Part shown: in pieces, positions 13,079 through 61,807 of the stretch | How the letters are laid out: the number at the start of each line of letters is the position of its first letter | Position numbering within the stretch: position 1 is the first letter of the stretch | Assembly: GCA_002840435.1 (NCBI GenBank) | Contig: PHAT01000005.1 | Span: forward strand, 36,460 to 100,459 | DNA length: 64,000 nucleotides | Reading direction: 5' to 3' | Origin: Deltaproteobacteria bacterium HGW-Deltaproteobacteria-6 | GTDB taxonomy: Bacteria; Desulfobacterota; Syntrophia; Syntrophales; Smithellaceae | The notes under the pieces: model-generated | Databases searched by the model: none | What the model was told of the DNA's origin: nothing | Seen by the model: the letters and a program-made list of their open reading frames with translations, nothing else | Translations under genes and position numbers: made by a program

Positions 13079-13103
13079 GCGCTGATCGAATCTGCTCAAA
13101 AAG

Positions 13104-14342: not shown

Positions 14343-14353
14343 CAACTACATAT

Positions 14354-15484: not shown

Positions 15485-15514
15485 ATAAATTCTCCTTGCA
15501 TTCTGCCGTCCTGA

Positions 15515-18762: not shown

Positions 18763-19801
18763 AGGCTCTTACACATGTATAAAAATGACGGAACTGTTCA
18801 TATAAATCCGCCGACGCCGGCACATGAACACGGCCAGGCGGATCATTTTTTTGCCCGATCCGTATCATGGCACCGGACTTCCAATACTCAGCACCAGCTT
18901 CATGATCATTCTCTCCGGTTATATAAAAAGGTTTTTCGCGGCCGATCACTGCCATGGCATACTTGCTAAAAGAGCCCATATACATGTCGGATAATTGACA
19001 AAGCGCGTACTCTTCAATGAAATTGTATCCTAAGCTTTTTGTCACCGTGATATTCGGCAGCCCGGTTTGAAAATCTTCTTTAGCCGCAATTGCCTTGTCA
19101 AACAGGATAAAGTGAATCCAAGGGAAGTCCTGCCACGCCTTCAGAAAAAAATCCCGCCACTGAGATGATGAAAAAGCAGAGAAACCACCCATGTCCATTG
19201 CCACCAAGAACGTCAGGGGCGAATGCATTTTGATAATATTTTTCGCCCAGACCCGCAAATTCACATGAAGCCGTGTGCAGTTCCCGTGGATACGTTTTAT
19301 GTCCTGCCGATAAAGAAATTTTTGATCAAAGACAACCAGTAATTCATCTGAAACATTCATATTATCTTTTCGAATAAACTTTTCCGCATGCTCACGCATC
19401 AGCAGCAGCGGCATCCGGTGAAATTCTATATCTCTGACTGACGGGTACAACTGTAGACATGAAAAAAGCTCAGCAAACTGCTGATATTGATTCTCCTCGC
19501 CAAGGTAAATGTGAAGTTGATCCAGAATGGCTTCGGGAGACCCAAGGCTGCCGATCATCTGGTCTAAGGCGATCATTGCGTCTCTGACACATTGCGGAGA
19601 GTCCTTTATGATGTAAATTTCTCCGGTATGGAGCGGGTGATTCGAGATTTCATCAAATCTCAAAATCATAGAAATAACCGTTCTGATGGAATTTTTTATC
19701 AGAAGAGCCCCCGGCCTAACGACATAGATTACCCGGGCTGTCTGCAGCAACCGATGCCACCATTTCCGGCTCGTAGTTACTATTGTTGTAAAGATATTCA
19801 T
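18740..19801 (-). CDS. Uncharacterised protein, divergent paralog 2 of 3
   Basis: 353 aa. The C-terminal half aligns by eye with its neighbours (W.DFF...P, LGYNFIEEYALCQLSDMYMGSFSKYAMAVIGREKPFYITGEND). Overlaps both flanking genes. Confidence 0.5.
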   Translation of the reverse strand: MNIFTTIVTTSRKWWHRLLQTARVIYVVRPGALLIKNSIRTVISMILRFDEISNHPLHTGEIYIIKDSPQCVRDAMIALDQMIGSLGSPEAILDQLHIYLGEENQYQQFAELFSCLQLYPSVRDIEFHRMPLLLMREHAEKFIRKDNMNVSDELLVVFDQKFLYRQDIKRIHGNCTRLHVNLRVWAKNIIKMHSPLTFLVAMDMGGFSAFSSSQWRDFFLKAWQDFPWIHFILFDKAIAAKEDFQTGLPNITVTKSLGYNFIEEYALCQLSDMYMGSFSKYAMAVIGREKPFYITGENDHEAGAEYWKSGAMIRIGQKNDPPGRVHVPASADLYEQFRHFYTCVRAYDQERSS

Positions 19802-20820
19802 TGTGTTTTCAGCATCTGATACGTGGGTTCAAATAAAGACAGCAGTAATTCAACTGTTTCTTTTTCCCAACTGATAATCTGATTGTCCAGTGCAAATGGG
19901 TAGGACAGAGCTCCGATGGGCAGATCGACATACTTGGCCGCAGCATGGTCAAAATTGGTGATGATATAGGGAATTTCACTGAAAGTTGCCAGGGCGGAAA
20001 AGCCGCTGGATGTGCCCATAAAAAGATCCGTCTGATGAAACAGCGTAATTTCATGAGCGAGATTATATCCCATCGCTCTGGGAATCAACACATTTTCAAA
20101 TGTATATAATTCCTTTTCCCATTCCGCATACCCACCGAAAGCAAGGAACAACACATCCGGATATTTTTTACGGACCACTTTAAAGAAACGATACCATTCG
20201 TGCAATGGCGAATCCCGGCGGATAACCCCTGACGCCTGCCCTGCAAAGCCTAAATCGGCATAATTTGCCCGCTGCCTGATGTTTACAGAGACCAGAAAGC
20301 GTCCGCTGCAGTGCTCCTTCAGAAAATCATCCATGCTGTTTTCATAACCCCGCGGTGTTTTTAATCGGGGAATATAATGATTTTCCTGAAAGAATTTATC
20401 GATTTTTTTATGGGAATAGTAATCCAGCTGCTCCATGGTATGGATTAACAGGTTTGGCCACGTGTGAAACCCGCTTAAAACTTTCTTCAACAAATAATAG
20501 TCAAAAGCGTGTCTGTTGGCAAACAGCTTCAACGACATCTCCAGCGGATTGCATAAAAAAGCCGGGAATAAATTGGATATATAGTCCCTGTAGTTTTCCC
20601 GGTTAATGTGTGGTTGAAGACGACCGGAGGGCCTTCGCGGATCAACAACCAGGCTGTGAATCACAGTATCGATGCCTTTATCCAGCGCTCCAATCGCCAC
20701 ATTAACCTGCCAGGTAAACGCATCTCCCAGCGCGTAAGGCGCATAAGAAAAATCGTAAATACCGATGAAGGGATACTTTATTTCTTTCTTTTGAATTTGA
20801 AAAGACATTATTTCTTTCAT
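19798..20820 (-). CDS. Uncharacterised protein, paralog 3 of 3; putative GT-B (GT9-like) glycosyltransferase
   Basis: 340 aa with GIYDFSYAPYALGD, IPRLKTPR and LFMGTSSGFSALATFSEIPYIITNFD blocks. 4-nt overlap with the downstream gene. Confidence 0.55.
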   Translation of the reverse strand: MKEIMSFQIQKKEIKYPFIGIYDFSYAPYALGDAFTWQVNVAIGALDKGIDTVIHSLVVDPRRPSGRLQPHINRENYRDYISNLFPAFLCNPLEMSLKLFANRHAFDYYLLKKVLSGFHTWPNLLIHTMEQLDYYSHKKIDKFFQENHYIPRLKTPRGYENSMDDFLKEHCSGRFLVSVNIRQRANYADLGFAGQASGVIRRDSPLHEWYRFFKVVRKKYPDVLFLAFGGYAEWEKELYTFENVLIPRAMGYNLAHEITLFHQTDLFMGTSSGFSALATFSEIPYIITNFDHAAAKYVDLPIGALSYPFALDNQIISWEKETVELLLSLFEPTYQMLKTQ

Positions 20821-20836
20821 TTCAAACCGGACATGA

Positions 20837-21943
20837 TTAGTCCGGCCTTCCTTTTATTAAGAAATCTCGAACTCGCAGCACCTCTTGATTTTTCATTAAC
20901 TCGGAATATAGTTTTTTCTGCCTCCATTTCCGTTCAAGATACGATTTAATCCTTCTGTAGGCGTAAGACGGGTAATGCTGCTTTGTCAGCACAAGATCCG
21001 CACCCGAAGCAAACACATAATTATTGTCAACTTCTTTCAACAAGTCATTTATTAAGACGGGGGCAATATATTTTCGATACCCCTTCTTAATATTATTCAT
21101 GGCATCTTCCAGACTGATGCCGTCTTGAGCAGATATAATTGAAGCGACCGCATTGTTGAAGTTCACAAAATCATCCGACCATGATTCCAAAAGGACTCTG
21201 TCAAAACGATCCATTAACGAGTCCTCCCTGGTGCAGTTTGTATTAAAATGGTGCTGCCGGAGAAGATACGGGACGGAAAGTGTTTTGATTTTTCCTGATG
21301 CAACAGCCATCAGGCTCGTTAAGAGTTCAGCAATCGTTACATCTTTGGGATATAAATCACGTAACGCATCAAAATAGCATCTAACATCTTCAATGTGATG
21401 GACGTCGTAGTAGGTTGTTGAATACGCTGCGAAGTGCGATATAATACGGTCTGAAGCCTTATCCTCCTCAAGGGAAACCGCTGATTGCACGAGGCAGCGA
21501 TCAATGCTTCCATAAGCTCCGTTTGCATCCGGCGCAATGGTAAACGCATACACTTGTCCTTTGCATGTTTTATAGTCATTGTTTTCCGAAAGAAATTTCA
21601 CCGATTGGCGGAGACCATCAACGATATAAAAATCATCATTATCTGCAAAAACAACAAAGGGTGTTTTTACTCTGGATAAAACATCCACTTTCTTTTCATG
21701 ATAAATTAAATAGGTCGCATCATAAGGGTAACGGATATACTCATAATCCAGATGAGGATAGGTATTCGCGCTGGATAAGACTTCGGTAATTTTCTTGTCT
21801 GATCCACCGTCCGCGATGAGTATCTTAAAGGGAAAGCGGCTTTCGTTGGCGTAAGCCATCCACCGATAGGTAAATGGCACACGGTCTTTGAGCGTGAGAA
21901 TGACCGTTAAATTCTTATCAAATTCGTTTTGCATAGACCTCAT
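20837..21943 (-). CDS. GT-A (GT2-like) glycosyltransferase domain protein, paralog A
   Basis: 368 aa with LTVILTLKDRVPF...ILIADGG and a DxD-like FADNDDF. About 60% identical by eye to the 24332-25465 protein. Confidence 0.6.
   Translation of the reverse strand: MRSMQNEFDKNLTVILTLKDRVPFTYRWMAYANESRFPFKILIADGGSDKKITEVLSSANTYPHLDYEYIRYPYDATYLIYHEKKVDVLSRVKTPFVVFADNDDFYIVDGLRQSVKFLSENNDYKTCKGQVYAFTIAPDANGAYGSIDRCLVQSAVSLEEDKASDRIISHFAAYSTTYYDVHHIEDVRCYFDALRDLYPKDVTIAELLTSLMAVASGKIKTLSVPYLLRQHHFNTNCTREDSLMDRFDRVLLESWSDDFVNFNNAVASIISAQDGISLEDAMNNIKKGYRKYIAPVLINDLLKEVDNNYVFASGADLVLTKQHYPSYAYRRIKSYLERKWRQKKLYSELMKNQEVLRVRDFLIKGRPD
21800..21943. repeat. Near-identical 5' coding segment shared with 25320-25465 (dispersed direct repeat about 3.5 kb apart)
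   Basis: By-eye alignment gives roughly 85% nt identity, including an identical 24-mer ggcacacggtctttgagcgtgaga at 21876-21899 and 25398-25421. Confidence 0.8.
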
Positions 21944-22036
21944 TAATTTCCCCGGATTATTAAATACTTACCAAAGAGATGGCAACCAGTCAACTGAATG
22001 ATGTTCATTCTATCCATAATGGGTAACCGTATCTTC

Positions 22037-24277
22037 TCAAATCAGCAACTTTCTATTCAGATAATTATGGGGCTTCCATAAACTGATATTCAAGCGTGGA
22101 TGTTTATGTCTTTCCAGAATGATCTTCTGCTGGCGAAGAATGAATTTATTGATGAATAATCGCATCAACAGGACATTGGAAAGCCTGCTGTTCGAGATAT
22201 TAATCATAACATCCCAATCATTGGAGAATATCGCGCTCACCGGAAGAATATCAACCCCCGACGGATTCTTTTTTCCGATCTGTTTATCATCAACAGCCCC
22301 GGCAATGATACATCCATCTATGGTTCTTAATTTTTCCATAATGTAATGAAGACAGCGACCCGCACCCATCAACAGAATCTTTTTATTTTGCAGTAATTTT
22401 TCAGGAAACACATCCGGCATTAACGGCAACAATCTTTCTTTATTGACCAGATTTTCAGTCGCCATCAAATCGCAGGCATCCTGGAAATACATATCTGTTA
22501 TCAGAACAAGGTCTGGTTTCAGCTCCTTGATTTCGCCCAGCCTATATTGAGGATAGAAAAAGAATTTTTTCGATTCTGGCGTGCCGCCTGAACCAACAAA
22601 GCCGATGATTTTATTCATATCAAACCCCGGAAGGCCGAACGCCAGGATGCTTTTGGCGTTCATGCCCGTACCCAGAATCAGGACCTTCTCCACCCCCTGC
22701 AATGCCTCACTCAACCTGTCAACTGATTCCGGTGATCCAATCCTGGAAAATGAAACATTGAAACAGTGTGGACAAACCAATCTTATGACAAGGCCGTCCC
22801 ATCTCCAGTTCCCGAATTCCTTGCCGATTTCGCTGCTTTTTTTACAGATGGGACACCGGGCAGAATACTGATAACCCCCTTCGGCAACCTCCAGTTGGAG
22901 ATCACATTTGAATCTGCCGGAAAGGAATCCCAGATAGCGCCGGACTTCTTTCATAATCCCGTTGTGAAGGTCTTCCGTACCGGGAAAATCACTGACATTT
23001 AAATAATTTTTTTCGGCAATGCGTTCATCGTCCAATCCAATGTATTGCAGCTTTGTTAAATACTCATACTCGTCTTCGATAATTTTTTTTTCTCTGGCAT
23101 GTCTGTAAATCAATGTGCCGGGGTAGGCAATTGTCAGATTAATATTGGAAAACATCTCTTCCTCGATCAGCAGATTGAATGTTTCCCGCAAATCTTCCCC
23201 ACCTTCTCCCTCGCTCCCAACCATCACATTGCATTCCTGCGGCATTTTAGTTGCTTTGAGTTCATGAAGGAATGTCTGAATAGTTTTTCTGTTAACGCCC
23301 TTATTCATCCGTTTGAGGATTTTATCGGAGCCGCTTTCCGCGCCGATGGACACACCGATGCAACCTGATTCTTTCATCACCTTGAGGATAGCCGGATCCA
23401 CATCCAGTCTGAGACTGCAAAACCATTCCTTCGGCGGTCCTTCCGCTGAATACCGCCGACAGAATTCGACAATTTCCTCATGGTGGGCAAACAGCACTTC
23501 CGTCATGACGCCGAAAACCGAAAAATCATATGTTTCACTCATCCTCCACATCTCCTTGAGGATGTTATTGATTTTTCGCGATCTGAATTGTCCCATTGTG
23601 GGCCGGCAAAAAGAACAATGCCCCGTACACCCGCGTCCGGTCATAACAGGAAAAAACGTCCGTCCGGGAAAGCTGTGATGGCAGCTGTGCAGATATTTCT
23701 CCATGTCCAAATGATGCCAGGCAGGTTCCCGATCATCTGAATCCAGATTCAGCCTTAAAGATGCTTTCCTGTGGATTGTTCCGGATTTTCTATCCCGAAA
23801 CATGACGCCCGGAAGGTCATCGAAAAATTTTTCGCTTCGTTCCAGACGGCGTAATAAACCGGCAAAGGCTGTCTCCGCTTCTCCCAGCACGGCATAGTCT
23901 ATCCCGAAACGGTCGAATAGAATATCCGGATTAACGCACTGGGTAATGTTACCGCCCAGAATAAACGGCATGCTTTCTCCGTATTTTTTTATACGCCCGG
24001 CTAACTCAAGAAAGAAAGGTGCGTCACCCACAAGACCGCCTGTTGCCACGGCCAGATAGTCGTTCTGAGCGAAAAGTTTTTTATAATTTACCTTTTGAAA
24101 AAAAGAATCTATAAAATCAAAAGGAATACCATTTCTATCCATATCCGCCATGACATAAGCCAGACCGATCGGGAAAAACCCGTAATTGGGTTTTATCAGC
24201 AGGATTTTGCGGGAAAACGGATTTTGTTTTTCAACCATCTCCGATTTATACTTTTCTTTCTGATGAATATCTATCAA
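22037..24277 (-). CDS. B12-binding domain / radical SAM protein with a C-terminal Zn-ribbon and Rossmann-like extension
   Basis: 746 aa: an N-terminal cobalamin-domain-like ILLIKPNYGFFPIGLAYV, a CxxxCxxC cluster (GCTGHCSFC), then CPICKK...CPHC and two G-rich modules (KVLILGTGMNAKS, KKILLMGAGRCLHY). Confidence 0.75.
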   Translation of the reverse strand: MIDIHQKEKYKSEMVEKQNPFSRKILLIKPNYGFFPIGLAYVMADMDRNGIPFDFIDSFFQKVNYKKLFAQNDYLAVATGGLVGDAPFFLELAGRIKKYGESMPFILGGNITQCVNPDILFDRFGIDYAVLGEAETAFAGLLRRLERSEKFFDDLPGVMFRDRKSGTIHRKASLRLNLDSDDREPAWHHLDMEKYLHSCHHSFPGRTFFPVMTGRGCTGHCSFCRPTMGQFRSRKINNILKEMWRMSETYDFSVFGVMTEVLFAHHEEIVEFCRRYSAEGPPKEWFCSLRLDVDPAILKVMKESGCIGVSIGAESGSDKILKRMNKGVNRKTIQTFLHELKATKMPQECNVMVGSEGEGGEDLRETFNLLIEEEMFSNINLTIAYPGTLIYRHAREKKIIEDEYEYLTKLQYIGLDDERIAEKNYLNVSDFPGTEDLHNGIMKEVRRYLGFLSGRFKCDLQLEVAEGGYQYSARCPICKKSSEIGKEFGNWRWDGLVIRLVCPHCFNVSFSRIGSPESVDRLSEALQGVEKVLILGTGMNAKSILAFGLPGFDMNKIIGFVGSGGTPESKKFFFYPQYRLGEIKELKPDLVLITDMYFQDACDLMATENLVNKERLLPLMPDVFPEKLLQNKKILLMGAGRCLHYIMEKLRTIDGCIIAGAVDDKQIGKKNPSGVDILPVSAIFSNDWDVMINISNSRLSNVLLMRLFINKFILRQQKIILERHKHPRLNISLWKPHNYLNRKLLI

Positions 24278-24331
24278 CGGAAATTGATCCGGGTTAAATG
24301 CGCAAGTAAGAATAATTCACGCTTTTTATCA

Positions 24332-25465
24332 TCATGTGTTTTTAAAACCGCTCAATAGAAATTCCCTGATACGGGATACTTCTTGATCATGATTCAAATC
24401 CGGACAGAAATCATTTTGATTTAAAACCTGCCTGGCATCCGGATTTATTTTCGTGCCTTTTCCCGCACCCGTTAATTTAGCTTTAAGTGCTTCATAACTT
24501 TTGAATAGATATAATTTTATAGATGTATTGGAAGGCGGCGGCTGTTGTATGGTGTTTTTCAAGATGCTATTTAAAATAACCGGATCAATAAATCTGCGAT
24601 AGCCTTTTTTTATATGTTGAATCGCACTTTCAACACTTATATTGTCCCTGATCCCGCAGATTGCGGCAACTGCCTTTACAAATGCTGTAAAATCATCCGA
24701 CCAGGATTCTAAAAGCATTCTGTCAAAACGATCAACCAATATGTCCTCTTTAGCGCAATTTGTATTCATGTGATACTGCCTGAGAAGATACGGATGAGCT
24801 ATTTTCTTTACTTTTCCTGATGCAACCGTCATAAAGCTTGTTAATAGTTCGGCGATGGTCACATCTTTTATATCAAAGTCATGTAACGCTTTAAAATTTT
24901 CTCTGATGTCTTCAATCCGATGGACATCATAATATGTAGTTGAGTACTTTTCAAAGTGTCTGGAAATGCGTTCTAACGCCCTCTCTTCTTCAAGCGATGC
25001 AGCCTCGTATAATGAAAACTGGATTGCATTTCCGTAAAGAGCATTTAAGTCAGGACTCAAAATAAAACTATACGTCTCTCCTCTGCAGGTACAATAATCA
25101 CGGTTTGCCGTCAAAAACTTCATAGCTTCACGAAGACCGTCATAAATGAGAAAATCGTCATTATCCGTAAATACGGCGAACTGCGTTTTAACTTTTGTCA
25201 AAACATCAGCTTTTTTTGCATGATATATGGAATATGTTTCGTCATAAGGATATCGAATATAATCATAATCGAGGTTGGGGTAGTTGCTTCTATTTGATAA
25301 TATTTCAGTTATCTGCTTATCCAGGCCGCCGTCCGCTATGAGAATTTTAAAAGGAAAGCGGCTTTCATTGGCGTAGGCCATCCATCTATATGTAAACGGC
25401 ACACGGTCTTTGAGCGTGAGAACGACTGTCAGATTCTTATCCAATTCTTTTTGTGTTGAGCTCAT
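24332..25465 (-). CDS. GT-A (GT2-like) glycosyltransferase domain protein, paralog B
   Basis: 377 aa with LTVVLTLKDRVPFTYRWMAYANESRFPFKILIADGG and FTDNDDF. The C-terminal ~70 aa are unrelated to paralog A. Confidence 0.6.
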   Translation of the reverse strand: MSSTQKELDKNLTVVLTLKDRVPFTYRWMAYANESRFPFKILIADGGLDKQITEILSNRSNYPNLDYDYIRYPYDETYSIYHAKKADVLTKVKTQFAVFTDNDDFLIYDGLREAMKFLTANRDYCTCRGETYSFILSPDLNALYGNAIQFSLYEAASLEEERALERISRHFEKYSTTYYDVHRIEDIRENFKALHDFDIKDVTIAELLTSFMTVASGKVKKIAHPYLLRQYHMNTNCAKEDILVDRFDRMLLESWSDDFTAFVKAVAAICGIRDNISVESAIQHIKKGYRRFIDPVILNSILKNTIQQPPPSNTSIKLYLFKSYEALKAKLTGAGKGTKINPDARQVLNQNDFCPDLNHDQEVSRIREFLLSGFKNT

Positions 25466-25534
25466 CTATCTTTTTTCAGGATTGATGGGGGGGCTGGCTG
25501 ATCTAAGCGGAGCAGTCGAATCATTTTCCGCCGT

Positions 25535-26452
25535 TCAACCCGGTAAAGGATAGCCGTACTTTTTCAGATCAAGTCCATACTCATGCATCAATTTCGCGTT
25601 GTCTTCCTGATAGAGTTCAATAACCCGCTTCCTCCAGGCATCCGACATAAAACCTTCGGCTGGCGGGCCTGACTGAACATAATTTCTGGCCATATCCTTC
25701 AGGGCGGCGCCGGGAATGTATTGTATGATATCACGGCCTCCAAAATGGTCACAGAATCGATGATACTGCCATTGACGCATGGTGTTCCTCGTCCTTTCAC
25801 GCCGCGATGAAACAAGCCCAATGGCCTCATCGGCATCTATGCGCAAAATCGCGCAAAGATCCTTGATGAAGCCGGGCGGGTTAGAAATAAAATCTTCATA
25901 GAACAAGATTTTAACTTTCTTTCTGTCAAAGTATTGTGTAAAGCCACAAAGGATTCTATGATAAAAATAACTGCCGATGAGACTGTATTTGATAAAATTT
26001 GTGGAATGATCCATCCATTCATCAAACGAAACAAATCGTTTCCAGTACCGGCGCGGAACATTCCTCAGGTAGGCGCCATGGTTGGCATACATCGACGGAA
26101 CAGCCGTCAGCTGATTTCTTACAACCAGTAATATTTCAGCGTCCGGAAGATAGCCGGAAAGACGTTTTGCGCACAATGCAGGAATATGGCTGGTCATGAT
26201 ATCTTCGCTGGAAAACAGCAGCGTCTTATCCCCGGCCGTTTCTTTCTTGCGCTTGAAAAGATCTTCAGCTTCGCGGGCTTTGAAATAGATATCATCATCC
26301 GAAATAAGAGAAAGGATGGTATCCTGATGTTCCGCATAATCATCACCATCCTCACCGATATAGACGAGATCTTTACTTTTTGAAAACAAGCAACGCTGAA
26401 GCGTTGTTGAACCGGTTTTATTGGCGCCGATATGAATGACGTTTTTTGACAT
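25535..26452 (-). CDS. PAPS-dependent sulfotransferase
   Basis: 305 aa with a 5'-PSB loop IHIGANKTGSTTL and a 3'-PB-like LLVVRNQLTAVPSMY. cysD/cysNC lie in the same transcription unit. Confidence 0.7.
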   Translation of the reverse strand: MSKNVIHIGANKTGSTTLQRCLFSKSKDLVYIGEDGDDYAEHQDTILSLISDDDIYFKAREAEDLFKRKKETAGDKTLLFSSEDIMTSHIPALCAKRLSGYLPDAEILLVVRNQLTAVPSMYANHGAYLRNVPRRYWKRFVSFDEWMDHSTNFIKYSLIGSYFYHRILCGFTQYFDRKKVKILFYEDFISNPPGFIKDLCAILRIDADEAIGLVSSRRERTRNTMRQWQYHRFCDHFGGRDIIQYIPGAALKDMARNYVQSGPPAEGFMSDAWRKRVIELYQEDNAKLMHEYGLDLKKYGYPLPG

Positions 26453-26453
26453 G

Positions 26454-27242
26454 TTAATCCCTGAGCGTTGGCGATCCGAAGATCAAGTTACATTTCCGTT
26501 CCAAGCGATATTCCGATGGAAAATTTTGCATGGGCAGAAGTTGAATCTTTCCGAGGAAGGAAAATTCCAGGAGTGATTTGTAGATAAGGTGATAACCCCG
26601 TGATTGTACATATTCCGTCACTTCACTGATATTCCAGAACCAGACGGGAATCTTCTCTCCGTAATAATTCTGAAAGGATACAAACGTTTTAATATCTCCG
26701 GCATTCAGCGCATTGAGCATCAGGACATCAGGTTGATAATTCAGGAGTTGCTTCAAGAGCCCACGCCAGTCACGGATATAATGAAGTGCTGCTGCTATAT
26801 GAACAATGTGAAACCTGCTTTCGCCAACAGGTAAAGAATCATGATAGTAAATATTATTGAAGTTCGCATATATTTCTCGACCCTTTTCACAAATTCTTTT
26901 CCCTTCCACAATGTGATACTCTATTTTTTGCGGGTCGGGCAACGAATGAATACAGGCCATAAAACTGTTTCCACTGCCGCCGCCAAAATCAAGAATACGC
27001 AGGGGTGAATCGGTTTTGTAAGTCGCGAGTAATGCCGCAATCGGAGGCAGGGGATACTCATGAACCAGGCTCAATTCAGAAGGCGCGGTTTTATTGGCGC
27101 CACCAATAGCGCCGGGTGACGATAAAGCTTTAAACACTGACGTGACCCAACGCTCGGAATCCCAAACGTGATCAGATTCCGATTCCGGAAACGCATCGAC
27201 TATTCCATCCCAGACGCAGGGACTTTCCTGATCAGTGCTCAT
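26454..27242 (-). CDS. Class I SAM-dependent methyltransferase
   Basis: Motif I ILDFGGGSGNSF. ATG at 27242 (MSTDQES) overlaps the upstream stop by 11 nt. The track start at 27314 is too long. Confidence 0.6.
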   Translation of the reverse strand: MSTDQESPCVWDGIVDAFPESESDHVWDSERWVTSVFKALSSPGAIGGANKTAPSELSLVHEYPLPPIAALLATYKTDSPLRILDFGGGSGNSFMACIHSLPDPQKIEYHIVEGKRICEKGREIYANFNNIYYHDSLPVGESRFHIVHIAAALHYIRDWRGLLKQLLNYQPDVLMLNALNAGDIKTFVSFQNYYGEKIPVWFWNISEVTEYVQSRGYHLIYKSLLEFSFLGKIQLLPMQNFPSEYRLERKCNLIFGSPTLRD

Positions 27243-28173
27243 GATTGCAATTTCCAAGCAATGCAATTGTTTCTTCGATATCTTTCGCAATGGATCCGGA
27301 ATAGCGAAAACCATGATTCATGAAGCGCTGACTGGAAACCTCATAAGAAAGCTGATTCATGATTTCATTATCAACGTACTTAATCGATACATGTGGAATA
27401 TGCGCGGCAATATTCTGAACAATGTCGTTGACCGTTAGATTATCGGTTAAAACATTATAGATCTGATTATCATACAATCCGCTTTGAATGATAAACTGAT
27501 ACGCCTTCATGGCGTCCTGCAGGGACAGATACGGACGTTTCTGATGCAAGGCGGTTGTCCAGACCGTCAGGGGCTGTCTCATAACGGCCTGCCAGCAGAA
27601 TTTGTTGACAGCCGTGTGAAATCTCATGCCCGGAGAAATTCCGCATATCGTGCCGAAACGACAGACAATAAATTTCAAGCCTTTGGACCGGCCCAGTTCG
27701 AAGAGATAGTCTTCCTCTTTAAGTTTTGTTTCGGCATAAGGACTCTGGGGCTTTAAATCTTCGAGCGTACAGCATTCGTCGACCAGGTTTTTCTGCGTCC
27801 CGTAAACACTGGTGGAGGACATATGAATCATCGGGCAGCCGAGACCGGCGCAGGCTTCAGCAACCCTGGCTGTCGCGTTAAAGTTATTCGTTTCGACCTG
27901 CTCTTTATTGTTGAAACTTCCGGCGGCATCGGTAATAGCCGCCAGATGGATAACCACATCCGCCCCATCGATCACGGAAAACAGATCGGCATTTAACACA
28001 TTCATTTCCAAAAACCGGTAACGGCTTTCCGCGGGAAGGTTGAATAATGAGGCATAGCGATTGGTCAGCATATTATCGATCATCACAACTTCCAGCCCCC
28101 GAAAAGCGGCGGGCAGCTCCCTGATCAATCGGGATCCGATATGTCCTAATGCTCCGGTTACAATGATTTTCAT
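27232..28173 (-). CDS. NAD-dependent sugar epimerase/reductase (SDR)
   Basis: 313 aa with MKIIVTGALGHIGSRLI and YAETK motifs. Confidence 0.7.
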   Translation of the reverse strand: MKIIVTGALGHIGSRLIRELPAAFRGLEVVMIDNMLTNRYASLFNLPAESRYRFLEMNVLNADLFSVIDGADVVIHLAAITDAAGSFNNKEQVETNNFNATARVAEACAGLGCPMIHMSSTSVYGTQKNLVDECCTLEDLKPQSPYAETKLKEEDYLFELGRSKGLKFIVCRFGTICGISPGMRFHTAVNKFCWQAVMRQPLTVWTTALHQKRPYLSLQDAMKAYQFIIQSGLYDNQIYNVLTDNLTVNDIVQNIAAHIPHVSIKYVDNEIMNQLSYEVSSQRFMNHGFRYSGSIAKDIEETIALLGNCNHEH

Positions 28174-28178
28174 TTTAT

Positions 28179-29156
28179 TTACGCCAAATAATGTTTGAGA
28201 TGTTTTTTGTAATATTCCCTGGTTACGACAAGCCCGGCATCCAAATCAAATTGGGGCGCCCAATTAAGATACTCTTTAATTTTTTTGTTGCTGATCACGG
28301 CATTGCCCACCTCCGTCGATTTTCTGTCCTTGGGCCATTCGATATATTTTATGCTTCCACTGCCCATGCACTTCATCGTTTTTTCCGCAATCTCCGCAAC
28401 GGTGTAATGATGATCTCCCACGGCAAAAAGCGCCTGCCCCTGTGTTTTTTCCGAAAGAGCGGCGGCAATCAATGCATTGACGGCATCATCGACAAAAATC
28501 ACATTTCTCAGTTGGTTCCCTTCGCCGAAAATATCAATATTCTTACCCTGCATGGCAAGTCCCACGAAATAATTGTTAAAAGTAAAACCGGCGCTGTGGA
28601 TACTGGCTCTCGGACCATACACGTTTGACAAGCGGACGACCGCCGCGCGCAGCATGTAAGCATTCGCATAGATAAGAACATATTTCTCCGACACGGATTT
28701 ATTGGCAGAGTATATATCGGTGGGGAATTCGGGGTGTTTTTCATCTGCGGGCTCGTATTGCAATTTACCCAACTGCGTACTTGTTCCGAGTTGAATAAAT
28801 TTCACATCGGCGTTGAATCGACGAACGGCTTCCAATAAATTAATGACGCCGCGCACATTGACGTCCATATCAATCCAGGGTTCCCGCATGGAAAAGGGAT
28901 GAGATGTCGAGGCCGCGCAGTTAAAAATAATATCTTTCTTAACCACTCTTTCTACGATTTGGTCATAGTCCAAGATATCATGATAGCAGAGCTCCACGGA
29001 ATCTTTTATATCATGGATATTATAAAGCTTACCGCCCGAGCGTGTATCCAGGCAATCATAAATTGTGACATCCGCCCCCATAGCCAGGCACTGATGTGCG
29101 AGGTTGCTGCCGATAAAGCCCAATCCGCCGGTGATTAAAACCTTTTTTCCTTTCAT
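28179..29156 (-). CDS. NAD-dependent sugar epimerase/dehydratase (SDR)
   Basis: MKGKKVLITGGLGFIGSNL and YSANK motifs. ATG at 29156 is preceded by GAAGGAG. The track start at 29213 overlaps the upstream gene. Confidence 0.75.
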   Translation of the reverse strand: MKGKKVLITGGLGFIGSNLAHQCLAMGADVTIYDCLDTRSGGKLYNIHDIKDSVELCYHDILDYDQIVERVVKKDIIFNCAASTSHPFSMREPWIDMDVNVRGVINLLEAVRRFNADVKFIQLGTSTQLGKLQYEPADEKHPEFPTDIYSANKSVSEKYVLIYANAYMLRAAVVRLSNVYGPRASIHSAGFTFNNYFVGLAMQGKNIDIFGEGNQLRNVIFVDDAVNALIAAALSEKTQGQALFAVGDHHYTVAEIAEKTMKCMGSGSIKYIEWPKDRKSTEVGNAVISNKKIKEYLNWAPQFDLDAGLVVTREYYKKHLKHYLA

Positions 29157-29184
29157 AAAAACTCCTTCAATTTCCCGGAACAGA

Positions 29185-29820
29185 TTATGACGATTTTTTC
29201 CTGGCTCTGACAAATATCATGAGGTTCCGATCACCTTTCCAGTTAAAACGGGACAATTCATCCACTTCAAATCCGATTCTATGCAAAAGCGCACGAATTT
29301 TATTTTCGGTATAACAATTCTTATGGAACTGCCCTTCGCTGTTCTGGGGTCCGAATATACTGGCGGTCAAGTATCCCCATCGACTTTCCGTTGAATATGA
29401 ATATTGACCAAACCAGTGCTGAGCGGCAATTGCCTCCGGATCATTGCGGAAAAAATCCTTCCATTCGTCCTTTGCCTGCAACCAAAGCCGGACGGTTTCT
29501 TCGAAATCCGGGACCGAAAATTCGAAACAGCCGCCGGGAGACAATACGCGCTTTACTTCCTGGAAAATTTTACTTTCCTCCAGAAAAGACAGATGCTCCA
29601 GCAGAGAATCGGCCCGAATCAGCGCAACGCTGCCGTCGGGAAAAGGGAGATTGAAGATGTCATACTGGTATACTTCAACACCCTCCGGAAATACAGTGCC
29701 CGGGTAACGCACTTTCATTTGTTCTATTGTATCCAAATCAACATTGATATATCCCGGCAGGGGACGGCCACCGCAGCCCAGATTGATTCTAATATCGCTT
29801 TTCGGTATTTTATTTTCCAT
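29185..29820 (-). CDS. Class I SAM-dependent methyltransferase (Methyltransf_11-like)
   Basis: 211 aa with INLGCGGRPLPGYINVD motif I and LSPGGCFEFSVP post-I motifs. Confidence 0.65.
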   Translation of the reverse strand: MENKIPKSDIRINLGCGGRPLPGYINVDLDTIEQMKVRYPGTVFPEGVEVYQYDIFNLPFPDGSVALIRADSLLEHLSFLEESKIFQEVKRVLSPGGCFEFSVPDFEETVRLWLQAKDEWKDFFRNDPEAIAAQHWFGQYSYSTESRWGYLTASIFGPQNSEGQFHKNCYTENKIRALLHRIGFEVDELSRFNWKGDRNLMIFVRARKKSS

Positions 29821-29887: not shown

Positions 29888-31009
29888 TTACTTTCTTTTC
29901 AACACCTTTTTAATTCCGTCGCAAACTCTGACAATCTGGTCTTCCGTGAGATTTCCGGCGCAGGGAAGATTGACGCCCCTTGGCGAAATATCATAACAGT
30001 TGACATTCCGCTTTTCATATTTTTCCTGAAACCCGGGATAAGCCGGCATGGAGGATAATGGATAGAAAAAAGGCCGGCAGGGTATTTCCAGTTCAGCCAT
30101 TTTCCTGATCACATCATTTTTATCCATCTTATAGGATTTGCCGATAATAATCGTCGGCATCCAGGCTCCATGGATTCCTTCCACCGGATCCGGATTGATT
30201 TCAATATCGTCGACATCCCGGAGGTTCTCCCTGTAAAGCCTGAGCTGGTTTCTCTTATTGATCAGCAGTTCCTCAATTCTTTGAAACTGCGCGTAGCCCA
30301 GAGAGGCTGACAGATTGTTCGGCATGTATTTATACGTCACCTCGTAATTATAATACATGCCGACCTCGGTTCTTCTGCCATGATCGCGGAGAAATTTGCA
30401 CCGCTCGAATAATTTGTCATCATCAATAAGCAGCATTCCCCCCTCGCCGGTCGTGATGGTCTTGGTCCGGTGAAAGCTGAACGTGGAGGCAATTCCGAAT
30501 TTTCCAGCCTTAACGCCTTTATATGTCGAGCCAAGGGCCTCAGCGGCATCTTCAACCAGGGGCAGGCCATGTTCACTGGCAATCTGAAGCAATTCATCCA
30601 TCAGCGGCATATTGCCGAATAATCCCACCGCCATGATCGCTTTGGTTTTCGGCGTAATGCTTTTTCTCACCGACTCGGGATCCAAGCACCAGTGCACGGG
30701 ATCGATGTCACAAAAGACCGGGATGCCTCTCAGATAGGTAATTCCCGCGCCGGTCGCAATCCAGGTGCAATCGGGAAGAATAACTTCGTCCCCATCGGAA
30801 ATCCCCATTCCAGTCAATAACAGGTGAATGGCCGTCGTGCAGCTGGGCGTCATCAATCCGTATTTTCGATTATGATATGCCGCAAATTCCTTTTCGAATT
30901 TCTCACAATAGTCAAAAGGGTGTTCATACCAGCCGTTGCGCATCATGTCTTCCACGACCTTTATTTCGTGCTCCGTAATCCAGGGTCCCGCAAAAAATAT
31001 TTTATCCAT
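29888..31009 (-). CDS. DegT/DnrJ/EryC1/StrS-family PLP-dependent sugar aminotransferase
   Basis: 373 aa with fold-type I aminotransferase features (SCTTAIHL, FSFHRTKTITTGEGG with the PLP lysine). Confidence 0.8.
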   Translation of the reverse strand: MDKIFFAGPWITEHEIKVVEDMMRNGWYEHPFDYCEKFEKEFAAYHNRKYGLMTPSCTTAIHLLLTGMGISDGDEVILPDCTWIATGAGITYLRGIPVFCDIDPVHWCLDPESVRKSITPKTKAIMAVGLFGNMPLMDELLQIASEHGLPLVEDAAEALGSTYKGVKAGKFGIASTFSFHRTKTITTGEGGMLLIDDDKLFERCKFLRDHGRRTEVGMYYNYEVTYKYMPNNLSASLGYAQFQRIEELLINKRNQLRLYRENLRDVDDIEINPDPVEGIHGAWMPTIIIGKSYKMDKNDVIRKMAELEIPCRPFFYPLSSMPAYPGFQEKYEKRNVNCYDISPRGVNLPCAGNLTEDQIVRVCDGIKKVLKRK

Positions 31010-31047: not shown

Positions 31048-31524
31048 CTACCGTATTCTAATGCCTTCCGTCCAATCATAGTTGATTTCCGGATCATCAT
31101 GCGGAATTCTAACCTCATCGCCCGTATCGTATGTACCGGATGTCACATAGATGATATGCATGGGTCCGTTGATACACCGGTATCCATGTAAAATGCCCGG
31201 CGGAAATCCGTATGCCTGCGGCACCTGATAATCACCGGAAAGAAACTCCATTTTTTGACGATAGGTGGGAGACTCTTTCCGCATGTCGTACAATACAACC
31301 TTAATCAGACCCGACAGCACGTAATTCCACTGTGTTTGAATTTTATGGGCATGCCACGCTTTAACAGTCCCCGCATAAACGAGCGAATGGCTCACCTGAC
31401 CGATAATCGTGGAATCTTCACCGCAGCCGCAAATAATTTCCCTGAAAAATCCCCTGTCATCGGTGTGTGTTTCAATCTTTTTAAAGACGACACCCGCTAT
31501 AGCGGCATCAATATGATTCATCAT
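31048..31524 (-). CDS. RmlC-like cupin (NDP-4-keto-sugar epimerase or ketoisomerase)
   Basis: 158 aa with HTDDRGFFRE and KAWHAHK motifs resembling the dTDP-4-dehydrorhamnose 3,5-epimerase fold. It sits between two DegT genes. Confidence 0.6.
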   Translation of the reverse strand: MMNHIDAAIAGVVFKKIETHTDDRGFFREIICGCGEDSTIIGQVSHSLVYAGTVKAWHAHKIQTQWNYVLSGLIKVVLYDMRKESPTYRQKMEFLSGDYQVPQAYGFPPGILHGYRCINGPMHIIYVTSGTYDTGDEVRIPHDDPEINYDWTEGIRIR

Positions 31525-31552: not shown

Positions 31553-32689
31553 TCATCTTTTAAAGAAACGTTTTACCGCACCGATAACCACAGATATTTC
31601 CTCCATACTCAATTCAGGGTACATGGGTAAGGACAGAATTTCGGTTGCCGCCCTTTCGGTGCGGGAAAGATCGTACCGCTGCAGATCGGACGATTGGTTG
31701 AATGCCGGCTGCAAATGCACGGGAGTCGGATAATGGATGGCGGCCATAATGCCCTCTGCCTTCAAATACGACAGCAACTGGTTCCGTTCATGACTTTTCA
31801 CGACATACAGATGATAGACGTGACCATCCCCGGGACGTCGGGCAGGGACCATACAATCCGTTTCGGCCAGCCCGCTGTTATAGGCATCCGCGATTTGAAG
31901 ACGTTTGCCATTATCTTCATCCAGATGCCGCAGCTTGACGCGCAGTATCGCCGCCTGAAGCTCATCCAGCCTGCTGTTCCATCCAAAAGACTTACTGACG
32001 TAACGCTCTTTCCACCCGTATTGCCTTAATTGCCGGACCTTTTCGGCCAGCTCGACATTATCGGTCACGACCATTCCGCCATCACCGATGGCCCCCAGAT
32101 TTTTTGTGGGATAGAAACTGAAACACCCCATATCGCCATAGGCGCCGCACCTTTTATACGATCCGCGGCCGCCGCCATGCGCTTGCATGTTCCCGCAAAA
32201 CGCACCATGCGCCTGCGCGCAGTCTTCGATGACCCGCAGATGATGTTTTTGAGCAACAGCAAGAATGTCTTTCATCAGGGCGGCCTGCCCGTAAATATGG
32301 ACCGGAACCATTGCTTTTGTTTTTGCCGTTACGGCCTGCTCAATTTTCCCCGGATCGATGGTGAAGTACTCATTTTCGATATCGACGAAGACAGGCTTTG
32401 CTCCGGCCAGGATAATAGCCGTTATCGTCGCCACCGCCGTGTGCGAAACAGTTATCACTTCATCCCCCGGACCGATGCCGCACGCGGTCAATGCGAGATG
32501 CAGGGCTTCCGTACCACTTCCGACGCCAATGGCGCAGGAGACACCGGTAAAAGACGCAAATTCCTGCTCAAAAGCGCTTACTTCATCTCCGAGAATATAA
32601 TATCCCCCATCAAGCACAGCGGCAATGGCTGAGTCGATTTCCTCTTTATAAGCAACATACTGGGCTTTGGGGTTAGCGCATAAAATCAT
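31553..32689 (-). CDS. DegT/DnrJ/EryC1/StrS-family sugar aminotransferase
   Basis: 378 aa with GSGTEALHLAL and FSFYPTKNLGAIGDGG (PLP lysine) motifs. Confidence 0.8.
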   Translation of the reverse strand: MILCANPKAQYVAYKEEIDSAIAAVLDGGYYILGDEVSAFEQEFASFTGVSCAIGVGSGTEALHLALTACGIGPGDEVITVSHTAVATITAIILAGAKPVFVDIENEYFTIDPGKIEQAVTAKTKAMVPVHIYGQAALMKDILAVAQKHHLRVIEDCAQAHGAFCGNMQAHGGGRGSYKRCGAYGDMGCFSFYPTKNLGAIGDGGMVVTDNVELAEKVRQLRQYGWKERYVSKSFGWNSRLDELQAAILRVKLRHLDEDNGKRLQIADAYNSGLAETDCMVPARRPGDGHVYHLYVVKSHERNQLLSYLKAEGIMAAIHYPTPVHLQPAFNQSSDLQRYDLSRTERAATEILSLPMYPELSMEEISVVIGAVKRFFKR

Positions 32690-32719: not shown

Positions 32720-33946
32720 TTACTCTCTGATTTTAATCTCCGGAACATAAACGATCCATTTGCCGCCGGAAGCCATAAAGTCACTCTCTTTCGCCATAAT
32801 CTCCTTTTCATGATTGTAGGCAAACAGCAGCGCATAATCCGGATAATGCTCTTTGAAATATTGATGGGACAGAACCGGTATATGGGCTCCCGGACTGAAT
32901 TTCCCCTGTTTGATCGGTGTCGTGTCGCAGATATAGTCAATATGTTTGTCGGTGATGCCGCAGAAGTTAATGATGGTCGTGCTCTTGGATGTCGCCGCAT
33001 ATCCGACGATGCTTTTCCCCTTTCCCCGGATGTCATTCAGAATCGTCATCAGGTCCGTGCGAAACCGATCGCAGTTGATTTTGAATTGATCGTACGTTTC
33101 ACGCCGGTTGAGGCCCAGATGCTCCTCTTTTGCCAGTTGGCGGGACAGGCGGGGAGATATTGTTCTCTTTCCCTTCCCCGCAATATAATACCGCATGGAC
33201 CCCCCGTGAGTGATTTGCGGTTCGACGTCAAATATTTCCATATCATGCTTTTTCAGGAGATATTGGATTGACGAAACGCAAAACAGGAAAACGTGTTCAT
33301 CATAAATTTGATCATAGGTTGTATTTTCGATAACATCCCCGAGATAAGGGTCTTCAAACACAACGACGCCCTCCGGCTTCAAGAGCTGTTTCATCCCCGC
33401 GATAATGGAATGCAGATAGGGGATATGGCACATGACGTTGGCGGCCAGGATGGCATCGGCAGGTCCATATTCAGTCAATATTTTTTTTGCAAGATCTTCG
33501 TCAAAGAAAGCTGAAATTGTATTAATGCCGTTTTCCCGGGCAACCAAGGCCACGTTTGCGGAAGGCTCAATGCCCAGATGGCGGATGCCGGCTTTCGCGA
33601 AATTCTGGAGCATGATGCCGTCATTGCTTCCGATTTCCACAACAAAGGGATCTGACGATTGGATGTAATCCCGCCGGACATTTTCCGCAAACATCCGGAA
33701 ATGATTAATCATGCCTTGAGAGGTCTGCGAAAAAAATGCGTAATTTTCATTGAACATGATTTCGCGTTCAGGTTGATTCAATAATTGAAACATGTTGCAG
33801 TTTGAACATACCCCTGCTTCCATCTCATAAAAATACTCATCAGAAAATTGGCTTTGCGTCAAAAAGCCATTGGCAATCGGCATTTTGCCAAACGACATAA
33901 ACGGTTCATAGGGTTCACCACATATTCTGCAATGGTTAACGGCCAC
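32720..33946 (-). CDS. NDP-hexose C-methyltransferase-like protein (Zn-ribbon + SAM MTase + C-terminal sugar-nucleotide domain; TylC3 type)
   Basis: CRICG...CSNC Zn domain, VVEIGSNDG motif I, and a C-terminal IVGYAATSKSTT module. GTG at 33946 is preceded by GGAGG immediately after the wzt stop. The track start at 34036 lies inside wzt. Confidence 0.7.
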   Translation of the reverse strand: MAVNHCRICGEPYEPFMSFGKMPIANGFLTQSQFSDEYFYEMEAGVCSNCNMFQLLNQPEREIMFNENYAFFSQTSQGMINHFRMFAENVRRDYIQSSDPFVVEIGSNDGIMLQNFAKAGIRHLGIEPSANVALVARENGINTISAFFDEDLAKKILTEYGPADAILAANVMCHIPYLHSIIAGMKQLLKPEGVVVFEDPYLGDVIENTTYDQIYDEHVFLFCVSSIQYLLKKHDMEIFDVEPQITHGGSMRYYIAGKGKRTISPRLSRQLAKEEHLGLNRRETYDQFKINCDRFRTDLMTILNDIRGKGKSIVGYAATSKSTTIINFCGITDKHIDYICDTTPIKQGKFSPGAHIPVLSHQYFKEHYPDYALLFAYNHEKEIMAKESDFMASGGKWIVYVPEIKIRE

Positions 33947-33957
33947 GGTTTGCCTCC

Positions 33958-39111: not shown

Positions 39112-39960
<849 letters not shown>

Positions 39961-39970
39961 GTTATACCAT

Positions 39971-40825: not shown

Positions 40826-40826
40826 T

Positions 40827-41741: not shown

Positions 41742-41762
41742 GCTGTTATCGAACCTGAACCA

Positions 41763-43840: not shown

Positions 43841-43863
43841 AATTAAAACCTCACTCCTGATCT

Positions 43864-45033: not shown

Positions 45034-45078
45034 GCAACACCGGATGCAAAGTAAATAGTTTCATCATGACCATTGGAT

Positions 45079-47782: not shown

Positions 47783-47817
47783 AATTCTTCCGGCTTAAAC
47801 GCCGGTCGTGCACCCTC

Positions 47818-49571: not shown

Positions 49572-49630
49572 TCGCTTGAACCATATGAGACTGAGGCATT
49601 GTTTTCTGCGCCCCTTGATTTTTCATGAAT

Positions 49631-50302: not shown

Positions 50303-50306
50303 ATTG

Positions 50307-54662: not shown

Positions 54663-54671
54663 TTTCGCTCC

Positions 54672-61804: not shown

Positions 61805-61807
61805 CGA

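Follow-up and report, generated by a model that had tools for sequence, protein, structure and literature searches.

What does a sulfotransferase do in a locus that builds a bacterial surface glycan, and which sugar receives its sulfate? The question is raised by a 64,000-nucleotide stretch of contig PHAT01000005.1 (positions 36,460 to 100,459; assembly GCA_002840435.1) from Deltaproteobacteria bacterium HGW-Deltaproteobacteria-6, a relative of the Smithellaceae, whose members are typical anaerobic syntrophs. This whole stretch is hereafter called the window. An earlier note had predicted that the gene at 25535-26452 encodes a sulfotransferase (ST) dependent on 3'-phosphoadenosine 5'-phosphosulfate (PAPS), that it lies in an O-antigen locus of the ATP-binding cassette (ABC) transporter, or Wzm/Wzt, type, and that sulfate would decorate the polysaccharide or cap its chain. 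We report that this ST belongs to a widespread, uncharacterised family, with a typical length of about 306 aa. Its role is probably that of a component of a conserved dTDP-sugar cassette which builds one or two rare amino-6-deoxyhexoses, the rare amino sugar being the sulfated residue; we prefer this reading to the others discussed below, while regarding it as well short of certain.

Profile, motifs and predicted fold agree in assigning the 305-aa product to the PAPS-dependent carbohydrate sulfotransferases. It matched Pfam Sulfotransfer_1 (E=5.6e-10, 39.5 bits, cut-off 22), Sulfotransfer_3 (30.7 bits, cut-off 27) and Sulfotransfer_4, likewise above its cut-off; the NCBIfam scan returned no model matching the ST. 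The two PAPS-binding motifs named in the earlier note, GANKTGSTTL (residues 8-17) and VVRNQLTAVPSMY (residues 109-121), are both present in the translation. In a family alignment of 37 sequences, H6, G8, N10, K11 and S14 of the 5'-phosphosulfate-binding loop (5'-PSB; HIGANKTGSTT, residues 6-16) are invariant (37/37), as are R111, Q113 and S119 of the 3'-phosphate-binding element (3'-PB) and the pairs E82-D83 and H124-G125. An AlphaFold2 (AF2) model built on this alignment (pLDDT 91, pTM 0.87) gives the 5'-PSB a canonical strand-loop-helix (E3-7/H11-22) and the 3'-PB a canonical strand-helix (E105-110/H113-125). From the alignment and the model, either the E82-D83 pair, which follows the strand at 76-81, or H124 is a candidate for the catalytic base. 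When the model was compared with the PDB using Foldseek, all 50 matches listed were sulfotransferases (probability 0.99-1.0; template-modelling (TM) score about 0.5-0.64), including 3rnl, the heparan sulfate (HS) 3-O-sulfotransferases 3-OST-1/3/5, the sulfotransferase domain of NDST1, TPST2 and CurM-ST, and a viral structure library again returned sulfotransferases, as weak matches. The class proposed in the earlier note is thereby borne out, and the possibility raised there of a non-sulfotransferase P-loop protein is ruled out by these fold matches.

The best match to the ST in both sequence (E=1.9e-6) and structure (E=2.8e-8) is PDB 3rnl, a structural genomics entry from Alicyclobacillus acidocaldarius, which shares 15% identity with it and is described merely as a sulfotransferase, with no substrate information. 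Among characterised proteins, the HS 3-O-sulfotransferases and the NDST1 domain (PDB 6xkg, 1zrh, 1nst, 8ccy) come nearest in fold (Foldseek probability 1.0, TM about 0.5-0.6); they likewise depend on PAPS to sulfate carbohydrates and share the 5'-PSB and 3'-PB elements. The catalytic base is a histidine in cytosolic sulfotransferases (SULTs) and a glutamate in HS sulfotransferases, for which the invariant E82-D83 of the window family is a candidate equivalent. These are, however, animal Golgi enzymes that act on a polymer and are 12-15% identical to the window ST, whose family differs from them by an insert at residues 28-72, modelled as a strand and two helices, and by a long, helical C-terminal half.

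A word-indexed search with the ST retrieved 173 homologues at E<=1e-3, nearly all 300-320 aa long and originating from metagenomes and metagenome-assembled genomes (MAGs); the few named sources are Prolixibacteraceae, Syntrophaceae, Planctomycetota, Leptospirales and Leptospira ognonensis. When 1.84 billion representatives were searched exhaustively with a profile, 461 homologues were found at E<=1e-30 and 3507 at E<=1e-10, numbers far beyond chance. Several metagenome contigs hold near-identical copies of the window cluster.

The neighbourhood of the gene bears on its acceptor. A sugar-tailoring cassette (26454-34036, minus strand; Table 1) lies directly upstream of the ST, whose start codon falls 1 nt past the stop of the upstream methyltransferase gene; the ST gene is translationally coupled within the operon. 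Perosamine synthases are the best PDB matches of DegT373, the C4-type aminotransferase, which NCBIfam scores as LegC-like. The short-chain dehydrogenase/reductase (SDR) SDR313 finds its best PDB matches, at 79 bits only, in generic UDP-sugar 4-epimerases, and SDR344 matches the NCBIfam models for dTDP-glucose 4,6-dehydratase and LegB under their cut-offs. The small methyltransferase MT211 keeps 64-69% identity across classes; with a single weak PDB match, it cannot be called an N-methyltransferase. RmlC, RmlA and RmlB, also encoded in the window, are predicted to supply the dTDP-4-keto-6-deoxyglucose precursor.

Related loci, numbered here with the prefix L, were fetched from species-representative genomes (24) and metagenomes (80), together with seven Pfam-annotated contexts. 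Homologues of all window proteins were located in them by tblastn, and neighbours were sought within +/-10 kb of the ST homologues. Once STs at least 95% identical had been collapsed, 46 non-window loci of at least 9 kb were left for counting. DegT373 is present in 42/46 and SDR313, at 54-65% identity, in 39/46; an FdtA-type ketoisomerase or SDR344, which alternate from locus to locus, in 37/46; the C-methyltransferase and the cupin in 33/46 each; the C3-type aminotransferase DegT378 in 31/46; and the TIGR04325 methyltransferase or MT211 in 30/46. Directly beside the ST, the gene found most frequently is DegT373 (17 loci), followed by MT211 and the TIGR04325 methyltransferase (15 loci each), and the identity of the ST to the window copy correlates with that of the TIGR04325 methyltransferase (rho 0.73) and SDR313 (rho 0.67). 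Conserved synteny of dTDP-amino-sugar genes around the ST was found in the annotated loci L033, L034, L036, L038 and L119; since rmlA and rmlB adjoin the cassette in L033, L119 and others, the pathway there is dTDP-based. The association is conserved across many classes and phyla, with hosts among the Desulfobacteraceae, Syntrophaceae, Gammaproteobacteria, Thiotrichales, Burkholderiales, Methylophilaceae, Sulfuritalea, Undibacter, Pseudolabrys, Leptospira, Akkermansia, Chthoniobacter and Prolixibacteraceae. The exporters near the ST vary, with a Wzx flippase in 8 of the 46 loci, an MsbA-like fused ABC exporter in 6, and Wzm/Wzt in one, a sister strain, as well as at the contig edge of Prolixibacteraceae L036. 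Steady co-occurrence with the cassette and varied exporters mark the ST as belonging to a mobile cassette for a rare sugar, whatever the export route. The same synteny, together with the translational coupling of the ST gene, speaks against a chance presence in the locus of an enzyme that modifies something else, be it lipid A/core, tyrosine in a protein or some small metabolite; lipid A/core genes do lie near the ST locus and TPST matches are among the fold hits, and we give this idea almost no credence.

On this evidence from gene content, the ST most likely acts on the rare amino-deoxy sugar, possibly while the latter is still dTDP-linked. In the pathway that we propose, sulfate would be imported by a Pst-like ABC importer and turned into PAPS by CysD and CysN/CysC, and the ST would then sulfate the rare amino sugar, probably in its nucleotide-activated form or just after transfer to the lipid-linked glycan. 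The downstream glycosyltransferases would build the polymer on undecaprenyl phosphate on the cytoplasmic side, and Wzm/Wzt would export it.

The stage of sulfation is addressed by one locus, L119 (NCBI MDSV01071035.1, a metagenome assembly), where two fusion proteins occur in a single cassette (4454-9574). P0264 (594 aa), at the usual position of the ST, joins a formyltransferase domain, in which the N-H-D catalytic motif is kept (LNIHPSYLPYARG and IDEGEII), to a full-length member of the ST family. The neighbouring 617-aa protein joins a C3-type aminotransferase to a TIGR04325-type methyltransferase. The substrates of sugar N-formyltransferases and of DegT aminotransferases are sugars linked to a nucleotide, and by analogy the fusions suggest that the ST and the TIGR04325 methyltransferase do so too. 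Literature searches for a dTDP-sugar sulfotransferase found nothing relevant.

The supply of the sulfate donor is the second line of evidence. The earlier note had placed PAPS-synthesis genes, co-oriented with the ST, about 10 kb upstream, which proved accurate: CysD and the CysN/CysC fusion score above their NCBIfam cut-offs and are encoded on the same strand, starting 9.8 kb upstream. The two genes are flanked on both sides by same-strand glycan genes, with gaps of at most 65 nt around the module, and an importer of the Pst type precedes them; it is presumed to bring in sulfate and may be a sulfate importer derived from a phosphate transporter. The same importer-cysD-cysNC module occurs, at 61-79% identity, in Syntrophaceae MAG L035, between the cupin and DegT373 (importer at 458-4010), and in L044, after the ST and a methyltransferase (importer at 3235-6580). 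Leptospira ognonensis (strain 201702476) carries a stand-alone APS kinase (APS, adenosine 5'-phosphosulfate) within its cassette, in the order CMT-cupin-MT-ST-DegT-FdtA-APS kinase-SDR, CMT being the C-methyltransferase and MT a methyltransferase; an APS kinase is nearby in two Sulfuritalea MAGs and several metagenome loci, and on the short contigs L053, L087/88, L091 and L092 it directly adjoins ST homologues of 31-40% identity. Overall, PAPS-synthesis genes, mostly APS kinase, were found in 10/83 unique loci, within the sequence available for each. This recurrent and independently arranged linkage is strong contextual evidence that the family uses PAPS and that cysDNC of the window would serve the ST. 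Because relatives stand repeatedly beside APS kinase or cysDN in other lineages, the sulfated surface glycan foreseen in the earlier note is a sound and well-supported prediction. The outlay on an importer and cysDNC also bears on the idea that sulfate only transiently activates the sugar or acts as its leaving group during tailoring, in the manner of the CurM and OLS ST domains, the final glycan being unsulfated. The ST gene does lie in close company with genes for the tailoring of nucleotide sugars, and CurM-ST and OLS-ST domains appear among the fold matches, but they rank under the carbohydrate sulfotransferases, and the loci share no partner enzyme that might eliminate or displace the sulfate. 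The investment would be large, though not impossible, for a catalytic leaving group, and we know of no precedent for one in sugar-nucleotide pathways; we regard this explanation as very improbable.

Several points weigh against the reading that we prefer. The acceptor is read from the gene neighbourhood. The formyltransferase-ST fusion is a single case from one metagenome assembly, so that the fusions in L119 argue for action on nucleotide sugars without proving it, and sulfation of the polymer fits the co-inheritance equally well. SDR313 and the two aminotransferases fit no unique pathway, and either one diamino sugar or two sugars are possible; apparently minimal loci, which are mostly truncated contigs or hold the sulfate module in mid-cassette (L035), do not separate a one-sugar from a two-sugar pathway. 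PAPS genes are found within 10 kb in only about 12-17% of related loci, and the remainder are assumed to rely on housekeeping PAPS genes. The importer scores as PstS/PstC/PstA/PstB-like, that is phosphate-type, under the NCBIfam cut-offs, and alignment of its binding protein to PstS structures does not separate phosphate from sulfate. Finally, no O-antigen ligase gene (waaL) was present among the window open reading frames scanned; we infer linkage of the glycan to lipid A-core because the locus abuts the lipid A/core genes.

Could the sulfate instead be a chain cap? The earlier note proposed that it is a terminal residue read by the C-terminal domain of Wzt; in this model it would be added once per chain at the non-reducing end, end polymerisation and set the modal length. 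The locus itself is of the ABC-transporter O-antigen type that the model requires, with wzm and wzt on the ST strand and lipid A/core genes abutting. The best PDB matches of both proteins are in the Aquifex Wzm/Wzt transporter, and the alignment of the window Wzt with full-length Aquifex Wzt (8dku) extends to residue 391 of 452; its C-terminal extension (residues about 275-452) is a putative homologue of carbohydrate-binding Wzt domains (Wzt_C E=1.4e-6, 28.8 bits, under the 30.4 cut-off), and the Wzt of the syntenic locus L036 has a faint Wzt_C match. Because of this putative binding-type extension, some terminal cap is to be expected, and the reasoning was sensible for the window locus. The ST is in the same gene array as wzt, 7.5 kb apart. 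Terminators of the WbdD or WbbB type, coupled to recognition by the Wzt carbohydrate-binding domain, operate in Escherichia coli O9a and Klebsiella pneumoniae O12, which share with the window a Wzm/Wzt exporter and a Wzt C-terminal extension; in contrast to these systems, no WbdD- or WbbB-like terminator homologue was recognised in the window, which speaks for the sulfate cap, and the ST family does not co-vary with Wzt, which speaks against it. Across the 46 loci the ST is linked to the nucleotide-amino-sugar cassette and not to Wzm/Wzt, which leaves the cap model unsupported: Wzx and MsbA-like exporters both outnumber Wzm/Wzt, and Wzx/Wzy systems have no use for such a cap at the chain end. 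The fusion to a nucleotide-sugar N-formyltransferase points to chemistry at the monomer level. The window also offers other cap candidates in an APH-type kinase with its coupled methyltransferase (49631-51410) and at least five further methyltransferases; the former are candidates for a split WbdD-like phospho-methyl capping pair or for a sugar kinase, and a PDB sequence search with the kinase gave no match. We consider a sulfate cap improbable, noting that in the window polymer the terminal position could be taken by the rare sulfated sugar itself.

A different question is whether the sulfate is bound to oxygen or nitrogen. The ST might be an N-sulfotransferase that converts a free amine made by an aminotransferase into a sulfamate, in place of an N-acyltransferase. 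Two aminotransferases are encoded in the cassette, and no N-acyltransferase is consistently linked to it in the annotated loci: none was found in the window cassette nor in L033, L034, L035, L036, L038 and L010, and the GNAT in L027 and the hexapeptide transferases in L037 seem to belong to other pathways. Two aminotransferases with no linked N-acyltransferase leave room for the ST to cap an amine. The ST gene directly adjoins an aminotransferase gene in 17 loci, and the N-sulfotransferase domain of NDST1 is among the closest folds. HS 3-O-sulfotransferases, however, match the fold equally well or better, and the fold does not discriminate between O- and N-sulfation. The amines could be N-methylated by the MT211 and TIGR04325 methyltransferases, at least one of them would be formylated in L119, where the ST is fused to an N-formyltransferase, and bacterial glycans also carry free amines. 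Literature searches found no N-sulfo sugar from bacteria. In the extracellular polymeric substances (EPS) of anaerobic granular sludge, dye-binding and nitrous-acid assays gave more N-linked than O-linked sulfate, the enzyme not being identified (PMC10483923); that report is a reason to test the idea and no evidence on the window ST. We hold N-sulfation to be unlikely, if less so than a cap. Slightly more doubtful again is the combined proposal that the ST is the first bacterial sulfotransferase acting on a nucleotide-activated amino sugar, N-sulfonating its amine to a sulfamate. If true, it would bring a bacterial N-sulfo sugar outside animal heparan sulfate and mark the ST family as a possible origin of the N-linked sulfate measured in the EPS of anaerobic granular sludge (PMC10483923). 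The significance of the locus would rise sharply if either sulfation of the nucleotide sugar or N-sulfation were true.

Sulfation of a rare amino sugar by the cassette ST, the reading that we prefer, can be set beside known systems. Loci that make a sulfated surface glycan and supply their own PAPS have precedents in Vibrio, Cobetia and cyanobacteria; the principle itself is not new. Synechan, from Synechocystis PCC 6803, is made by a Wzx/Wzy-dependent system whose STs presumably act on the polymer, and we know of no linkage of these STs to an amino-sugar cassette. Synechan is a cyanobacterial sulfated exopolysaccharide with sulfotransferases encoded in its biosynthesis cluster (xss; PMC8205485), and its likeness to the window locus lies in these sulfotransferase genes within a glycan cluster. 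The capsule of Vibrio sp. KMM 8419, whose structure is solved, is made by a cluster with an extra cysNDC, sulfotransferases and an ABC exporter, a set that its authors call a hallmark of sulfated polysaccharide synthesis (PMC11641403). The window locus, with its predicted cysD, cysN and cysC and an ST, belongs among polysaccharide loci with such a built-in sulfation module. Like it, the Vibrio cluster and that of Cobetia marina KMM 1449 combine cysN, cysD and cysC with sulfotransferases and an ABC-type exporter (PMC11641403, PMC11766843). They differ in having Kps-type capsule exporters, gammaproteobacterial hosts and common sulfated sugars (rhamnose, glucose), whereas the window has a Wzm/Wzt exporter, a host from an anaerobic syntroph lineage, a Pst-like importer and an ST tied to an amino/C-methyl-sugar cassette; the sulfotransferases are likened here by description. 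A rare amino-sugar setting recurs in the glycosylation clusters of Moumouvirus, where a predicted ST and a sulfate adenylyltransferase/APS kinase lie beside genes for a dehydratase, an aminotransferase and an acetyltransferase, and where sugar sulfation was suggested and not validated (PMC10117803). The viral ST is shorter (263 aa), an acetyltransferase is present, and the likeness, beyond weak viral fold matches, is one of description. The list of rhizobial and mycobacterial cases in the earlier note is incomplete: it omits synechan (PMC8205485), the capsules of Vibrio and Cobetia (PMC11641403, PMC11766843) and the EPS of granular sludge (PMC10483923).

Three elements are new: a widespread, uncharacterised sulfotransferase family; the fixed coupling of this family with a cassette for an amino/C-methyl deoxy sugar, a formyltransferase fusion among its forms; and the occurrence of this family in a Wzm/Wzt lipopolysaccharide (LPS)-type locus of a Smithellaceae-related bacterium that has its own Pst-like importer. 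The fixed coupling predicts a new sulfated rare sugar, and the presence of the cassette in the cultured Leptospira ognonensis makes its chemistry directly checkable. Sulfated glycoconjugates have been measured in granular sludge, both anaerobic and aerobic, and in numerous sediments, and searches with reference sulfotransferases miss the responsible genes (PMC10483923). For their synthesis, the ST family is a concrete enzyme candidate.

The remaining features place the ST in a roughly 50-kb, same-strand glycan locus of the LPS O-antigen, ABC-transporter type (Table 1). The minus strand carries all substantial genes of the window between about 11.5 kb and a point no nearer than 62.9 kb, and intergenic gaps across 17.6-51.4 kb are at most about 150 nt in the part measured. 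The plus-strand run of lipid A/core genes converges on the locus and abuts it; given these genes (lpx and others), the organism is didermic. The LpxB encoded there shares 78% identity with a protein of a Smithellaceae MAG and 65-67% with Smithella proteins. A promoter and terminator scan of 24000-43900 found no excess over shuffled sequence (34 against 30.1±4.8 promoter-like and 28 against 22.4±5.6 terminator-like sites) and yielded no boundaries of operons.

Table 1. Features of the window, with positions counted from its first nucleotide.
Feature	Position	Strand	Evidence or remarks
Lipid A/core genes	1-11469	+	bamA(partial)-skp-lpxD-lpxA-lpxB-msbA-lpxK-lpxL-heptosyltransferase-gmhB-like-heptosyltransferase
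Locus end: FnlA/B/C-like UDP-HexNAc enzymes, GT4, epimerase, small initiating phosphoglycosyl transferase	11520..17454	-	Pfam Polysacc_synt_2, RmlD_sub_bind, Epimerase_2, Glycos_transf_1, Bac_transf
Glycan block downstream of ST	17608..25465	-	Probably glycosyltransferases
X384	17608..18762	-	384 aa
X353	18740..19801	-	353 aa
X340, GT-B fold	19798..20820	-	340 aa; AF2 pLDDT 92; Foldseek matches GT9 WaaC/3tov
TIGR04440-domain glycosyltransferase	20837..21943	-	NCBIfam TIGR04440 175 bits
B12-binding radical S-adenosylmethionine (SAM) enzyme	22037..24277	-	746 aa
TIGR04440-domain glycosyltransferase	24332..25465	-	NCBIfam TIGR04440 180 bits
Sulfotransferase (ST)	25535..26452	-	ATG start; 305 aa; predicted cytoplasmic; Pfam Sulfotransfer_1 39.5 bits
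SAM methyltransferase, TIGR04325 family	26454..27314	-	NCBIfam 113 bits (cut-off 80); gene callers: 262 aa, 26454-27242
SDR313, nucleotide-sugar epimerase/reductase-type SDR	27232..28173	-	Pfam Epimerase 111 bits
SDR344, 4,6-dehydratase-like SDR	28179..29213	-	GDP_Man_Dehyd 151 bits
MT211, small SAM methyltransferase	29185..29820	-	Pfam Methyltransf_11
DegT373, pyridoxal phosphate (PLP) sugar aminotransferase, C4 type (perosamine-synthase/LegC-like)	29888..31009	-	DegT_DnrJ_EryC1 338 bits
Isom158, small cupin (RmlC/FdtA-like epimerase or ketoisomerase)	31048..31524	-	dTDP_sugar_isom 66.7 bits
DegT378, PLP sugar aminotransferase, C3 type	31553..32689	-	Best PDB matches include DesV, QdtB, WbpE (250-366 bits)
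NDP-hexose C-methyltransferase	32720..34036	-	Methyltransf_13 and Methyltransf_14; gene callers: 408 aa, ending near 33946
Wzt, ABC exporter ATPase with putative C-terminal carbohydrate-binding-type extension	33958..35316	-	ABC_tran 79 bits
Wzm, ABC-2 permease	35329..36192	-	ABC2_membrane 65 bits
CysN/CysC fusion (ATP sulfurylase large subunit and APS kinase)	36258..38171	-	NCBIfam NF004035 903 bits (cut-off 715)
CysD (ATP sulfurylase small subunit)	38171..39097	-	NCBIfam 449 bits (cut-off 195)
Four-gene Pst-like ABC importer: ATPase, two permeases, periplasmic binding protein	39112..42770	-	Pfam ABC_tran, BPD_transp_1 x2, PBP_like_2
APH-type kinase, three methyltransferases, RmlD-like reductase, MBOAT and AlgX-like pair, Zn-dehydrogenase	42767..51410	-	
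APH-type kinase (50307-51410) and small methyltransferase	49631..51410	-	Translationally coupled
Split transketolase	51950..53712	-	N and C halves are separate genes
Heptose-nucleotide block	53718..58505	-	
rmlB, rmlA, rmlC	60379..62890	-	Pfam GDP_Man_Dehyd 324, NTP_transferase 234, dTDP_sugar_isom 249 bits

Three proteins of the glycan block, X340, X353 and X384 (17608-20820), had no family in the Pfam scan. X340 and X353 were both considered as chain terminators. For X340, 135 homologues were detected, and this role is ruled out, its model being a GT9-like GT-B glycosyltransferase; X353 had no match at all in searches. Between 51950 and 58505 (minus strand), the split transketolase stands beside a GmhA-like SIS protein, a nucleotidyltransferase, an HldE-like kinase/adenylyltransferase, a 4,6-dehydratase, an SDR and an FAD oxidoreductase, which suggests, from the predicted activities, a modified or 6-deoxy-heptose in the same glycan. 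The MBOAT and AlgX-like SGNH pair at 45079-47782 (minus strand), of the alginate-type O-acetylation machinery, is kept at 14227-16856 of the syntenic Prolixibacteraceae locus L036. The APH kinase-methyltransferase pair, RmlD287 and MT389 accompany the cassette in two distant loci, L086 and L099, whose STs are only 31-32% identical to that of the window.

Variation is also seen next to the ST homologues. In L023, from a Pseudolabrys MAG, SDR313 is directly followed by another Sulfotransfer_1 protein (322 aa; 4866-5834) that differs from the ST, hinting at doubly sulfated products in some lineages. A gene for a protein of about 250 aa comes directly after the ST in L010 (5061-5816), L027 (10919-11677), L035 (10968-11720) and L044 (2362-3114); by Pfam it is of the CmcI/rhamnosyl-O-methyltransferase type in the first three, whose hosts are among Desulfobacteraceae, Syntrophaceae and Leptospirales MAGs, and it is grouped with them in L044 by size and position only. 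A GT2 glycosyltransferase follows this gene in L010, L027 and L035, where the window has a TIGR04440 glycosyltransferase right after the ST instead. The sister strain (L005-L008; ST 93% identical) lacks the pair formed by a TIGR04440 glycosyltransferase and the radical SAM enzyme, so that the second TIGR04440 glycosyltransferase directly follows its ST; the difference looks like serotype-like microdiversity, possibly involving an extra C-methylation. A radical SAM gene similar to that of the window also lies inside the cassette of Prolixibacteraceae L036.

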